DNA of 62,173 nucleotides from Candidatus Binatia bacterium (GCA_019749875.1 JAIEPK010000143.1:73531-135703), one strand, 5' to 3'. Shown: positions 56,298-62,173, counted from the first letter of the stretch. Notes: generated from the letters alone by a model not told the origin. Translations and numbers: made by a program.

Positions 56298-57572
56298 CTA
56301 CGACGGGCGCGCGGCTCGGTCGAGCCGCGCCGAGGGTTCCACGCGATCGAAGACCACCGGCACCAACACCCCGCCGCGCGCCGCTCCTACGAGGAGGAGT
56401 CGCGTCACCCGCTTCATCGTCGGCCGTTCCGCACGGTGCTCGGCGATCTCTGCGTCCGGCAGCTCGCCCGCCCGGAGGGCGCGGCTCGCGAGCACGGCGC
56501 CGAGCGCCCCCGCAGCACCCCAATCGCCGACCAGCCGGCGGAACGGCGCGTACGCCGGTCGGCGATCGTCGCGACAGAGCCGTTGCAGGATCGCGTCGTC
56601 GAGTGCGTCGCGCAGCACGAGCCCGTTCGCAGACCCGAGAACGCCGTCGAGCTCGGGGCCCGGAAAGTGCGCCAGCTCGAGCAGCTCCGATGCTGCCGCG
56701 TCCACGTCGCGCGGGAGGCCGTACGGCGAGCAATCCCCGCCCACCGCCCCGATGCGCGCGCCGGCGACCGTTGCGTAGGGCTTCGCCCCGCGTGCCGTCG
56801 CGCGCGATGCACGCTCGAGCACGAGCGCCGCCGCGCCCTCGCCGGGCACCACCGTCCCGTGCCGACTCGTTCGACGGCCCCGGCGCTGCTCGCCCTCCGG
56901 AGCCATGGCGTCCGGATGCAGAAGACGGAGGTCCGACAGCGCATCGAGCAGGACACTGCCCATCTCGTCGACCGCGGCGACGCACGCGACGTCGCAGGTG
57001 CCGCTCGCGAGCAGGTCGAGGGCGGTCGCGATGGCGACCTCGCCCGATGCCTCGTGCTCCGCGACGCAAACGTTGGGTCCGCGCACGTCGAGCTCGATCG
57101 CGGCGTAGCCCGCGGCAGCGTTCAGGACGAGATTCGGGAATAGAAGCGGCTGACCCGCAGCCGGGCCCGACGCGAAGACGCGCTTCAGGTACACCGCGGT
57201 CTCGCGCTGGTTGCCGTAGCAGGACCCTACGACCAGCGCGGTGCGCACGCTGGTCGCGTCGTCGAGCGGTACCAGGCCGGCGTCCTCGCTGGCCTGGCGG
57301 AGTGCCGCGACCGCCATGCGCGAGCACCAGTCCATGCGTCGCAGCTGCGCCGAGCGCACGTGCTCGCGCGGCTGGAAGCCGCGCACCCAGCCCGCGCGGC
57401 GCACGGCATCCGGAGCGGTCGGATCGACGCCCGTTGCGAGACGGTCGTCACCGGGCGCGAGCTCGCGAATTCCGCTTCGCCCGGCCACGAAAGCGTCCCA
57501 GACGGATTCGATCCCGGTACCGAGCGGACATACCGCGCCCAGGCCGGTGACGACGATCGGCTCGTTGCTCAT
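56298..57572 (-). CDS. Ketosynthase chain-length-factor (CLF)-like protein
   Basis: KS fold; active-site Cys replaced by Glu (AEHEASG); both His motifs lost (SANG, GDWGAAG); ATGA overlap with KS. Confidence 0.85.
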   Translation of the reverse strand: MSNEPIVVTGLGAVCPLGTGIESVWDAFVAGRSGIRELAPGDDRLATGVDPTAPDAVRRAGWVRGFQPREHVRSAQLRRMDWCSRMAVAALRQASEDAGLVPLDDATSVRTALVVGSCYGNQRETAVYLKRVFASGPAAGQPLLFPNLVLNAAAGYAAIELDVRGPNVCVAEHEASGEVAIATALDLLASGTCDVACVAAVDEMGSVLLDALSDLRLLHPDAMAPEGEQRRGRRTSRHGTVVPGEGAAALVLERASRATARGAKPYATVAGARIGAVGGDCSPYGLPRDVDAAASELLELAHFPGPELDGVLGSANGLVLRDALDDAILQRLCRDDRRPAYAPFRRLVGDWGAAGALGAVLASRALRAGELPDAEIAEHRAERPTMKRVTRLLLVGAARGGVLVPVVFDRVEPSARLDRAARPS

Positions 57573-58810
57573 GCGCGCCGCAGCACCAGCGAGCAGTTGT
57601 TGCCGCCGAACCCGTACGAGTTCGACAGCGCCGTCGCGATGGCGAGCGGGCGGCCACGATTCGGCACGTAGTCGAGGTCGCAGGCAGGATCGGGCTCGCG
57701 CAGGTGCAGCGTCGGTGGCGCCCAGCGGTCGTCGATGGCGATGATCGTCGCGATCGCCTCGACGGCCCCCGCGGCTCCGAGCAGATGCCCGATCAGCGCC
57801 TTGGTCGACGACACCGCCACGCGCGGCGCCGCTTCACCCAGCACGCGCTTCAAGGCCAAAGTTTCGCTGGCGTCGTTCTGCACGGTGCCGGTGCCGTGCG
57901 CATTGACGTAGTCGATCTCGCCGGGACGGACGCCGGCGTCGCGCAGCGCGCTCTCGAGCGCGAGCACCGCGCCGCGTGCCTCACCGTGCGGAGCGGTGGG
58001 ATGCGATGCGTCGCACGACATCCCTGCGCCCGCGAGCTCGGCGAGGGCGACGGCCCCGCGGGCGCGAGCGTGCTGCTCCGACTCGAGAACGAGGATGCCG
58101 GCGCCCTCGCCGAGCGACAGTCCGCGGCGCTCGCGGTCGAACGGGCGGCACGGCTCGCTGCTCAACGCCTGCAGCGCGTGGAATCCCGTGTAGGTCATCC
58201 GCGTCAACGCGTCCGAGCCGCCCGCGACGGCGACGTCGACCGCGCCGGATCGGATCCACGCCGCCGCCAGCGCGAGCGCGATCGCGCCGCTCGAGCAGGC
58301 GGTCGACGGCGACAACCGCGGACCCCGGGCACCGAGCACCGCTGCGACGAGATCCGTCGGAGCGGCCACGGTCGCGGCCGCGAGCCGCCTACGCCACACG
58401 TGCGACGTCTGCGCAGCGAGGCGCGTGCGAAAGTACGACTCTGTCTCGAGCATGCCGCCGGTCGAGCTGCCGATCGCCACACCCAGTCGACGGGGGTCGG
58501 CGAACGGCACGCTGAGCCCGGCGTGGGCGAGCGCCTCCTCCGCTGCGAGGAGCGCGAACCGATCCGAGCGCGACGCCCGAACGCGCGCAGCGCGCGGCAG
58601 CAGTCGCGGCTCCGGGACGTCACTCACCTCGCCCGCGATGTGCACCCGCAGCCCGTCGGTGTCGAACAGCGTGACGTCGCGGATGCAGGTTCGCTCGCCG
58701 TGCAGGGCCGCCCGCAAGGCCGCTGCATCGCCACCTGCTGCAGTGATCGCTCCGACGCCGGTCACCACGACGCGCGTCCGGGGCTCTTGGGGCCGCTCGC
58801 GATGCTCCAT
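57569..58810 (-). CDS. Beta-ketoacyl-ACP synthase (KS-alpha/FabF-like)
   Basis: TACSSG, YVNAHGTGT, KALIGHLLGAAG (C-H-H triad), SNSYGFGG. Confidence 0.95.
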   Translation of the reverse strand: MEHRERPQEPRTRVVVTGVGAITAAGGDAAALRAALHGERTCIRDVTLFDTDGLRVHIAGEVSDVPEPRLLPRAARVRASRSDRFALLAAEEALAHAGLSVPFADPRRLGVAIGSSTGGMLETESYFRTRLAAQTSHVWRRRLAAATVAAPTDLVAAVLGARGPRLSPSTACSSGAIALALAAAWIRSGAVDVAVAGGSDALTRMTYTGFHALQALSSEPCRPFDRERRGLSLGEGAGILVLESEQHARARGAVALAELAGAGMSCDASHPTAPHGEARGAVLALESALRDAGVRPGEIDYVNAHGTGTVQNDASETLALKRVLGEAAPRVAVSSTKALIGHLLGAAGAVEAIATIIAIDDRWAPPTLHLREPDPACDLDYVPNRGRPLAIATALSNSYGFGGNNCSLVLRRA

Positions 58811-58813
58811 GGC

Positions 58814-59554
58814 TCAGTGCATCGTCAGGCCGCCGTCGACGACGAGCGTCGCACCGGTGACGTAGCGAGCGCGATCGGAGACCAGGAACGACGCCGCATC
58901 GGCGACGTCCTCGGGCGTGCCGAACCGACCGAGCGGAATGCGCGCGACGAGCCCGTCGCGCTCCTCCGGCTTCATGTGCGCCAGGATGTCCGTTTCGACG
59001 TAGCCCGGGCACAGGGCGTTCACGGTGATGCCGTAGCGGCCGGCCTCGGCCGCGAGCGACTTGGTGAAGGAGACCAGCGCGCCCTTCGCGGCCGCGTAGT
59101 TCGCGGCACCCGGCTTGCCGAAGAATGCGGCCGGCGACACGACGTTGACGATGCGGCCGCCGCGCTGCGCGCTAATGGCGCGCCCCGCGGCCCCCCGGCA
59201 GGGGTACGCTCCAACGCCGTCGACCCGCAGCACCTCGCTCCAGGCCTCGGGACGCATCAGCATCACCAGCGAGTCGCGGGTGATCGCCGCGTTGTTGACC
59301 AGAATGTCGATGCCGCCGAGCTCGGCCTTCACCGCCGCGAACATGGCGTCGACGGCCGCGCCATCGCCGACGTCCGCAAGGCACGTCGATGCGCCCTCGA
59401 TGCCAAACGCGGCCGCTTCCAGCGCGTCGCGGGAATGCCTGGCGTTCATGACCACGCGTGCGCCATCGGCTGCCAGACGCCGCGCGATCGCCAGCCCGAT
59501 GCCCCGGCTGGCGCCGGTGACGAGTGCCCGTTTTCCGGAGAGCTCTCTTTCCAT
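58814..59554 (-). CDS. fabG: 3-oxoacyl-ACP reductase (FabG-like)
   Basis: TGASRGIG, NNAA, YAAAK, PGYVET, PLGRFG. Confidence 0.9.
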   Translation of the reverse strand: MERELSGKRALVTGASRGIGLAIARRLAADGARVVMNARHSRDALEAAAFGIEGASTCLADVGDGAAVDAMFAAVKAELGGIDILVNNAAITRDSLVMLMRPEAWSEVLRVDGVGAYPCRGAAGRAISAQRGGRIVNVVSPAAFFGKPGAANYAAAKGALVSFTKSLAAEAGRYGITVNALCPGYVETDILAHMKPEERDGLVARIPLGRFGTPEDVADAASFLVSDRARYVTGATLVVDGGLTMH

Positions 59555-61346: not shown

Positions 61347-61397
61347 GCGGCGCCGCCTCGTCTTGCGGTGCGGGCCGCCCCGGCGAAGGATGAGCTG

Positions 61398-62114
61398 ATG
61401 TCCTGCGCGAGGATGGTGCGCTCGGCGGCCCGGCCGAGCCGTCGGGCCCGGACGACCACGCTGCGGCTCTGCGGCGCCGTTGCGCTCGGTCTGGCGCTCG
61501 GCTGGACGGCCGTCGGCCGGGAGTCTGCAGCGCGCGCCGCCACGGATGCCGCCACGCCGGCCGCTGCCGGCTGTGGCAGCCCGCAGCAGTGCTTCTCGCG
61601 GATGGCCGACGCGCAGCGCGACGTGTCCCGGATTCGCGCGCAGTTCCGGCAGACGAAGCAGGTTGCGCTGCTTGCCGAGCCGCTGGTCTCGACTGGCCGC
61701 TTCTCCTTCGAGCGCCCCGACCGGGTGCGCTGGGAGATGCTGACGCCGGAGCCGCTGGTGGTGGAGATCGCCGGCGGAGCGCTGCGCGCCGGGCCGCCGG
61801 GTGCGGTCACCGACGTCGATGCCGGGCCGGCGGTGGGCTTGTTCCGCGACCTCGGTGGCTTGTTCTCCGGTGCTGCGGACTACGCAGGCGAGCAGCGCTT
61901 CGCGCTGTCGTCGGGCGGCTCGCCGTGGAGCTTCGTCTTGACACCACGCGACCCGTCGGTCGCACGCGTCATCGGCGCGATCGACGTCACCCTCGACCCC
62001 GCGACCGGTGGACCGCGCCGCGTCGCGATCAGCGAGCGCAGCGGCGACCGCACCGAGATCGAGCTGTTCGACGTGCAGGTCGAGCGCGCCGCCGCGCACG
62101 GCGGGGGCGCGTGA
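61398..62114 (+). CDS. LolA-like outer membrane lipoprotein carrier-family protein
   Basis: A.FRQTK...L..PL.STG.F.F.RP..VRW; signal-like hydrophobic segment; start uncertain (61368/61398). Confidence 0.8.
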   Translation: MSCARMVRSAARPSRRARTTTLRLCGAVALGLALGWTAVGRESAARAATDAATPAAAGCGSPQQCFSRMADAQRDVSRIRAQFRQTKQVALLAEPLVSTGRFSFERPDRVRWEMLTPEPLVVEIAGGALRAGPPGAVTDVDAGPAVGLFRDLGGLFSGAADYAGEQRFALSSGGSPWSFVLTPRDPSVARVIGAIDVTLDPATGGPRRVAISERSGDRTEIELFDVQVERAAAHGGGA

Positions 62115-62173
62115 GCGTCGTCGCTCGGCGCGGCACGGCTGCGCTCGGGCTGTGGCTCGTCGCAGGCTGCGCG
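62111..62173 (+). CDS. Partial lipoprotein gene running off the window end
   Basis: GTGA overlap; MSVVARRGTAALGLWLVAGCA with lipobox VAGC. Confidence 0.55.
   Translation, partial: MSVVARRGTAALGLWLVAGCA

Follow-up and report, generated by a model that had tools for sequence, protein, structure and literature searches.

At one end of a 62,173-nucleotide stretch of DNA from an uncultured Candidatus Binatia bacterium (GCA_019749875.1 JAIEPK010000143.1:73531-135703; the whole of that stretch is 'the window' here) are two divergent sets of genes, at 56298-62173, that recall the widely distributed genes for aryl polyene (APE) lipids of the outer membrane in many respects and depart from them in others. 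It is, in our judgement, fairly probable that they belong to a lineage-specific, dehydratase-less relative of the APE systems with assembly, anchoring and export modules, and as far as sequence can tell, the cluster probably makes and exports a related membrane lipid.

The likeness is to the apeA-R genes of E. coli CFT073 and Xenorhabdus doucetiae, the CFT073 ape cluster being the reference for the pairwise protein comparisons that follow. Common to both are an acyl-acyl carrier protein (ACP) ligase (a presumed one here), a dedicated ACP, an ApeO-clade ketosynthase (KS) with an inactive partner, a FabG-like ketoreductase (KR), a LolA-like carrier, an MMPL transporter, an outer-membrane lipoprotein (a putative receptor here) and, when a separate operon considered below is counted, an ApeD-like PlsC-type acyltransferase together with a GT2 glycosyltransferase and an LpxL-type acyltransferase that are ApeJ-like. 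However, the Binatia cluster is without the ApeI/ApeP dehydratases, the ApeK thioesterase, the ApeR initiation KS, ApeG, ApeB and a second ACP. Its KS partner, at 424 aa, has a FabF fold and bears Glu, in contrast to the 240-aa PF13723 protein ApeC, the counterpart of ApeJ is split in two genes, the lipoprotein is of predicted LolB/LolA fold and not DUF3261, and the genes are in two divergent operons plus the separate one, 20 kb off, that has a B12 radical SAM gene.

Gene layout across a contig junction

Protein-coding frames were chosen with the GC content of third codon positions (0.85-0.93 across 56298-62173), and every domain named for the genes there was confirmed by Pfam and NCBIfam searches. 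The features, with those on the contig that continues the cluster (C619 of the same genome, G000), are:

56298-57572, minus strand: FabF-derived KS partner ('Glu-type' chain length factor, CLF), 424 aa; in Pfam, KS N-terminal domain only
57569-58810, minus strand: the KS, 413 aa, with C-H-K-H; both KS domains in Pfam
58814-59554, minus strand: FabG/ApeQ-like 3-ketoacyl-ACP reductase (the KR), 246 aa, from domain matches
~59591-61036, plus strand: adenylate-forming AMP-ligase, from domain matches; start uncertain, GTG at 59591 or TTG at 59567
61074-61346, plus strand: dedicated ACP, 90 aa, with the serine of a DSI motif, from domain matches
61368-62114, plus strand: secreted LolA-like lipid carrier, from Pfam LolA
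62111-62173, plus strand: lipoprotein N-terminus (signal peptide and lipobox), cut at 62173 by the window end
G000:C619:3-779: remainder of the lipoprotein, found with genes of a relative (L003) as queries
C619:766-3309: MMPL transporter, 847 aa, next after the lipoprotein

The KS stop and partner start share an ATGA overlap, the LolA-like stop and lipoprotein start share a GTGA overlap, and the KR ATG is preceded by a GGGAG that resembles a ribosome-binding site. An earlier, preliminary description of this DNA had reported an intact-triad KS coupled to a His-less partner with Glu for Cys, a KR and, divergently, a ligase, an ACP, a LolA-like gene and a lipobox gene cut by the edge; the domain searches find all of them in place, and the residues of the pair, given below, agree with it.

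Where does the truncated cluster continue? The window is the final 62 kb of contig C680, and its edge is the contig end. With the genes of the close relative L003 (a Candidatus Binatia metagenome-assembled genome, MAG, with a partner 75% identical) as queries, the continuation was located at the start of C619, where the rest of the lipoprotein gene and the MMPL gene are followed by JAB and PanE (ketopantoate reductase) genes, the same two that end the cluster in L003. The local cluster is therefore one of eight genes, and domain search of these revealed no dehydratase, thioesterase or enoyl reductase.

The ketosynthase and its glutamate-bearing partner

Alignment to the positions of C164/H304/K336/H341 of E. 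coli FabF gives C/H/K/H for the KS and E/S/R/D for the partner. In a quick IQ-TREE run with FabFs, ApeO and ApeR, in which ApeO is on a long branch, the KS and seven orthologues are in one clade with E. coli ApeO (support of 98 in the Shimodaira-Hasegawa-like approximate likelihood ratio test), separate from the FabF clade (97); identity of the KS is 36% to ApeO and 36% to ApeR. Its top PDB sequence match, at 300.8 bits, is 9s5h_B, from a heteromeric KS pair, a literature search for the code 9S5H having returned nothing; FabFs follow at ~298 bits, then Iga11 at 245 and the actinorhodin KS at 219. The cispentacin AmcF model is also among its NCBIfam matches, below cut-off. Are the KS and KR just the housekeeping enzymes of type II fatty acid synthesis (FAS II)? 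With 402.8 on TIGR03150 (cut-off 493.75) for the KS and 242 on TIGR01830 (cut-off 297.75) for the KR, both score below the equivalog cut-offs, and the FAS II genes are elsewhere in the genome, FabF (53% identical to that of E. coli) on contig C606 and fabD-fabG-acpP on C668, all of which argues against FabF and FabG identities.

The partner is a full-length FabF-fold protein under purifying selection. Its AlphaFold2 model (predicted local distance difference test score, pLDDT, 88.6; predicted template-modelling score 0.92) has a complete KS fold, with template-modelling (TM) scores of ~0.8 to Iga11 and FabFs and 6kxd_A as best fold match. Comparison with the L003 orthologues gives a ratio of nonsynonymous to synonymous substitution rates (dN/dS) of 0.24 for the partner; the KS and the ACP each have 0.17, and the LolA-like protein has 0.34. 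Homologues of the partner fall into ~85 sequence clusters at 39-81% identity, intact at 390-430 aa, and those that carry a name belong to MAGs under the labels Binatia, Deltaproteobacteria or Thermodesulfobacteriota; Glu is invariant at the Cys position and the second His position (H341) is nearly always Asp or Glu. That the partner is without all four catalytic residues could be taken as a sign of a decaying FAS II duplicate, with a dead KS copy and no functional pathway. Such decay is very improbable given the intact frames in so many clusters, the dN/dS value, the invariant Glu and near-invariant acidic residue, the conserved synteny and the confident model of the full fold, and so the worry expressed earlier that the CLF-like gene might be a decayed pseudogene is laid to rest.

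What kind of partner is it? With Glu invariant at the Cys position it is not a Gln-type CLF, and therefore the term 'type II polyketide synthase', used in the preliminary description, does not hold beyond being a loose label. The actinorhodin CLF (1tqy_B) gives only 42.9 bits, and domain search of the cluster and its C619 continuation found no cyclase or aromatase. By analogy, we infer that KS and partner form a heterodimer in which the partner acts like a chain length factor. The counterpart that appears nearest as a biochemical precedent for a Glu-type partner is the anammox pair amxFabF2/amxFabFmut, a functional KS/CLF-like heterodimer that is full-length and FabF-derived (bioRxiv 10.64898/2026.05.19.726425). 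Anammox Cluster I likewise has adjacent full-length FabF homologues, one with its triad intact and one without, a dedicated ACP and an associated cobalamin radical SAM enzyme. However, amxFabFmut has Val/Thr at the Cys position where the Binatia partner has Glu, and Cluster I, which is without a ligase/LolA/MMPL module, carries a FabZ of its own and a phytoene-desaturase-like gene, whereas the Binatia cluster is the reverse and the radical SAM gene of the window is 20 kb away. An active KS paired with a full-length inactive partner is also what is known from Iga11/Iga12 of ishigamide synthesis and from the actinorhodin KS/CLF, but the Iga systems have their own dehydratase and the CLF of actinorhodin carries Gln in place of the Cys, in contrast to the Binatia locus, which also has neither the cyclases nor the aromatases. 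Resemblance to flexirubin and xanthomonadin systems is in the LolA2-type carrier, a FlxB-like short-chain dehydrogenase/reductase among the KR matches, and halogenase and ammonia-lyase genes in relatives, though the LolA2_flexi and FlxB-like NCBIfam matches are far under their cut-offs (51.9 vs 125 and 194 vs 340, respectively) and, unlike those systems, the Binatia cluster is without dialkylresorcinol genes and dehydratases.

Might the partner do more than set chain length? Because an invariant Glu and a near-invariant Asp/Glu at the second His position persist across a large, multi-lineage family of stand-alone proteins, it may be a catalytic subunit, for example for priming/decarboxylation or for supplying dehydration or another step no longer encoded in the dehydratase-less Binatia clusters. 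We rate this as quite improbable; if true, such an activity would be new to the thiolase/KS fold.

Putative loading, anchoring and export genes

The KR is 34% identical to ApeQ and the ACP 41% identical to ApeE; the best NCBIfam model for the latter is PRK09184, at 57.7 bits, below the cut-off of 70. Best PDB matches of the ligase are to feruloyl/fatty-acyl, malonyl and 4-chlorobenzoate ligases, and naming its substrate from these was dropped, as they are too scattered. Some relatives have further genes in the cluster, namely a flavin halogenase-like gene (L007, L008, G352 and G385) and an aromatic ammonia-lyase gene (L040), and these therefore give a hint that the starter acid may often be aromatic. 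Other variants are ligase-less (G334, G317 and L005). In L008, L009, G369 and G352, a gene of the isocitrate/isopropylmalate-dehydrogenase family (PF00180) lies between those for ligase and ACP or takes the place of the former.

The LolA-like protein, which matches Pfam LolA, is 26% identical to ApeL, its best NCBIfam model being that for flexirubin LolA2 (LolA2_flexi), below cut-off, and the MMPL protein is 24% identical to ApeM. The lipoprotein, read from 62111 as VSVVARRGTAALGLWLVAG|CA, has LVAG|C as its lipobox. With the C619 remainder added there is no Pfam match, and none to DUF3261. An AlphaFold2 model of the L003 orthologue, made with 20 homologues (pLDDT 87), has as its Foldseek matches LolB (1iwm, TM 0.68), LolA3 and 3buu, with probability 1.0, and on that model the lipoprotein has a LolB/LolA fold. 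The predicted export module is therefore MMPL, LolA-like carrier and LolB-fold lipoprotein, which is the logic of ApeM, ApeL and ApeN of E. coli (PMC8253772).

For anchoring, the candidate genes are in an operon elsewhere in the window:

32286-33815, plus strand: B12-binding radical SAM enzyme, from its domains, at the head of the probable lipid-anchoring operon
33911-34879, plus strand: LpxL-family acyltransferase resembling the C-terminal half of ApeJ (28% identity, E = 3e-14)
34907-35695, plus strand: PlsC-family acyltransferase, ApeD-like (23% identity, E = 6e-8)
35703-36488, plus strand: GT2 glycosyltransferase resembling the N-terminal half of ApeJ (29% identity, E = 5e-24)

In Xenorhabdus, ApeD and ApeJ put acyl chains on a glycerol-phosphate-GalNAc backbone (bioRxiv 10.1101/2020.12.19.423268). 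The operon is ~6 kb from the KS pair in L005, L007, G385, G334 and G317, and in L007 and G385 the radical SAM gene is syntenic with the acyltransferase and glycosyltransferase genes. The earlier surmise that the operon at 32-36 kb completes the pathway gains from the ApeD-like and split ApeJ-like proteins and from the closeness in those five relatives, and membership is likely but circumstantial, for reasons of distance given below. On the minus strand at 29730-32264, and so a divergent neighbour of the B12 radical SAM/acyltransferase/GT2 operon, is a gene for an Omp85-barrel protein with an M1-peptidase-like domain; this arrangement recurs in L007 and G385, and the protein may be an outer-membrane component of the lipid system.

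Dehydration, product and distribution

How could these parts work together? The ligase would adenylate a carboxylic-acid starter and load it on the dedicated ACP; the ApeO-like KS, as a heterodimer with the Cys-less FabF-fold partner, would add malonyl units, and the FabG-like KR would reduce the beta-keto group. Dehydration could be by the housekeeping FabZ (an LpxA fusion) acting in trans, or else the chain would be short and beta-hydroxylated. The chain would then be transferred from the ACP to a glyco(phospho)lipid by the PlsC-like and LpxL-like acyltransferases and the GT2 enzyme (33.9-36.5 kb), and transport of the lipid to the outer membrane would fall to MMPL, the LolA-like carrier of the periplasm and the LolB-fold lipoprotein.

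Several observations weigh against this reading. The ligase matches ApeH weakly (21% identity, E = 1e-10), and ligase or lipoprotein is missing from the clusters of some relatives. Profile scores set the partner apart from the ApeC type, as it gives 21.2 bits on PF13723 (cut-off 25) where ApeC of CFT073 gives 225. Some 20 kb with unrelated genes (TetR, EamA and MacAB-type efflux) separate the anchoring operon from the cluster in the window, and the operon was not found within 20 kb of the cluster in G309, G369, G352 and G401, which is why its membership is circumstantial. There is no dehydratase or ApeP-like gene within 20 kb on either side of the cluster in any of the eight genomes of the family examined, which span at least five genera, and PF22817 and PF22818, the ApeI/ApeP families, have no match in G000 or in the genome of a close relative, G001, though the CFT073 positive control was found. 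Known APE systems have two specialised dehydratases, ApeI and ApeP (PMC8253772). The preliminary description is therefore upheld on an APE-type layout, as seen in the KS/ApeO clade and the likenesses to ApeE, ApeQ and ApeL, and its 'polyene or lipid pigment' product is unproven given the absence of a dehydratase from all eight family loci and of the ApeI/ApeP families from the genome.

Is a dehydratase simply hidden? It had been thought that one might lie, with an MMPL gene, beyond the edge; the MMPL gene does, at C619:766-3309, but the dehydratase does not, as the contig ends and C619 provides only the lipoprotein and MMPL genes before JAB and PanE. Nor is the lipoprotein a disguised hot-dog dehydratase, having a lipobox and the modelled LolB/LolA fold. 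The His of the partner's E-H-E motif was considered as tracking dehydratase loss, and this was rejected since L008 (SLAE) and L040 (DGE) have neither that His nor a dehydratase. The genome does have two FabA-family genes, the housekeeping FabZ on C568 and one on C671. The former is fused to LpxA in a 426-aa frame (C568:10097-11377; FabA domain at residues 12-144, hexapeptide and LpxA C-terminal domains at 269-423), with bamA, lpxB and msbA-like genes as neighbours; in other genomes of the family the FabZ match falls in open frames of 426-446 aa, which suggests that the fusion is conserved, and in the cluster-bearing G401/G001, G317 and G334 the housekeeping FabZ is the sole FabA-family match. 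The C671 gene was rejected as a general dehydratase source, being absent from all of the 20 other family genomes tested. It is in a 58%-GC island (C671:11769-17965) of a contig with ~65-70% GC, together with an MMPL gene (minus strand), a KS falling with E. coli ApeR and a protein of 221 aa without a Pfam match, the gene itself being for a 409-aa double hot-dog FabA-like dehydratase; given that absence, the island looks like a recently acquired second lipid/APE-like module. L011 and the sister family, f102, have colinear genes that include one for an ApeP-like dehydratase, and because of this the most likely course is that the dehydratase was lost in the window's family and the other genes have been kept since.

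What, then, is the product? One version of the APE-relative reading has a genuine aryl-polyene pigment, with the KS pair iterative and FabZ-LpxA dehydrating each round in trans to give a coloured polyene lipid. The ApeO-like KS, the presence of FabZ in the genome, the ApeP/FabA-like dehydratase retained in f102 and L042 next to an orthologous Glu-type partner, and the halogenase and ammonia-lyase genes of relatives, typical as they are of xanthomonadin/flexirubin-type pigments, speak for it, but the dedicated dehydratase was lost early and its absence is stable, in contrast to the ApeI and ApeP of known systems, and activity of FabZ on a polyenoyl chain on a foreign ACP is a supposition, so that a true pigment seems rather doubtful. 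The other version, which we rate slightly above the pigment though still as less likely than not, is extension for a few rounds without dehydration, primed by the loaded acid or a malonyl-derived unit, giving a 3-hydroxyacyl-ACP donor for the LpxL/PlsC enzymes and thus a hydroxyacyl or acyloxyacyl glycolipid. It accords with a cluster that encodes KS, partner and KR and neither dehydratase nor enoyl reductase, with the appearance, below cut-off, of cispentacin AmcF among the KS matches, with the ligase-less G334, G317 and L005, which need an internal primer, and with the use of acyl-ACP donors by LpxL- and PlsC-family enzymes. Single-condensation heterodimers are known, and amxFabFhet gave only acetoacetyl-ACP in vitro (bioRxiv 10.64898/2026.05.19.726425). 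However, a conserved chain-length-factor-like partner is commoner in iterative systems, and the sister clade carries a dehydratase.

Outside the APE-relative reading altogether, the cluster could be a dedicated branch for fatty-acid elongation that borrows FabZ and FabI and whose product would be an unusual acyl chain, saturated or modified by a radical SAM enzyme, for lipid A or a different lipid of the envelope; the very-long-chain system of rhizobia, AcpXL/FabF1XL/FabF2XL/LpxXL, offers a comparison. In its favour are the FabF-like pair with its dedicated ACP, the transferase of the LpxL family, and the repeated occurrence of B12 radical SAM genes next to Glu-type partners (L012, L039, L040 and L042). 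Anammox Cluster I also unites a FabF heterodimer with an ACP and a B12 radical SAM gene (bioRxiv 10.64898/2026.05.19.726425). We nonetheless consider such a branch unlikely: the KS groups with ApeO and not FabF, lipid A needs no MMPL/LolA/LolB-like exporter, the cluster is without a FabZ or desaturase paralogue, and the radical SAM enzyme of the window is just 26-28% identical to those beside other Glu-type partners. As the latter share 45-76% identity mutually, its orthology to them was rejected.

Returning to the dehydratase-less APE relative, how widespread is it? The first phylum-wide search for the partner, at E <= 1e-30, gave mostly ordinary FabFs and was rerun at 1e-55 within the class. 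The partner was then found in 23 of 201 sampled class genomes (89 genera) and in just two families, the window's own (14 of 20 genomes) and f102, and the dehydratase-less cluster is confined to one Binatia family. The layout in eight own-family genomes is partner-KS-KR // divergent (ligase)(halogenase-like)(Iso_dh) ACP-LolA-(lipoprotein)-MMPL-(LPG_synthase_TM), the genes in brackets being absent from some of them. A profile built on Glu-type partners finds many more stand-alone partners of ~400 aa, with the motif x-E-[AVIL]-S-G-E, for which the NCBI name is merely 'beta-ketoacyl synthase N-terminal-like domain-containing protein' and which have no Pfam or NCBIfam family name. A dehydratase is present in some of these lineages and absent from others, as their gene neighbourhoods illustrate:

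L039: B12 radical SAM, KS, Glu-type partner, LpxL-type acyltransferase
L040: aromatic ammonia-lyase, B12 radical SAM, KR, ACP, KS, Glu-type partner, LolA
L041: KR, KS, Glu-type partner, DUF4292, MMPL
L042: B12 radical SAM, FabD-like, KR, ApeP/FabA-type dehydratase, KS, Glu-type partner

Nothing relevant came from a literature search that combined Binatia and aryl polyene. The Binatia variant points to an APE export and anchoring 'chassis' that can be combined with a different condensing pair, an ApeO-like KS and a FabF-derived Glu-bearing partner, and that can last long without any dedicated dehydratase. It raises the question of whether FabZ is borrowed or whether non-polyene (hydroxyacyl) outer-membrane lipids are made. 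The Glu-type partners are a large, unnamed family, and extend the recent recognition of chain-length-factor-like FabF homologues outside polyketide synthesis. Practical value is modest, being improved annotation of the Binatia envelope and a candidate for heterologous expression.

Some other features of these genomes deserve brief mention. Many fusions of KS and partner, of ~810 aa, are among the matches to the partner profile (P0178-P0313); their second half fits it strongly but carries Ala, Gly or Arg where the Cys would be. In the same genus as the window, G441:C30:1-37400 (L029 and L030) is a larger 'super-cluster' with orthologues of the ligase-ACP-LolA genes, another KS/partner pair of greater divergence, additional ligases, a halogenase-like gene, GT2 and radical SAM genes, and a third KS that comes with LolA, MMPL and a weak FabA-like match. 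The partner gene of the window is flanked by a gluconokinase gene (55788-56285) that is outside the cluster. In L003, MBOAT (AlgI-like) and AlgJ-like genes sit between the KS partner and gluconokinase genes (L003:11300-13744); the window is without this insertion, and paralogues are elsewhere in G000 (C346, C579 and C535). Between the cluster and the anchoring operon, at 40007-44479 on the minus strand, is a MacAB-type tripartite set (HlyD-like adaptor, two MacB/FtsX permeases and ABC ATPase) without evident link to the lipid operons, and beside it, at 44570-45181, is a gene for an outer-membrane beta-barrel protein.

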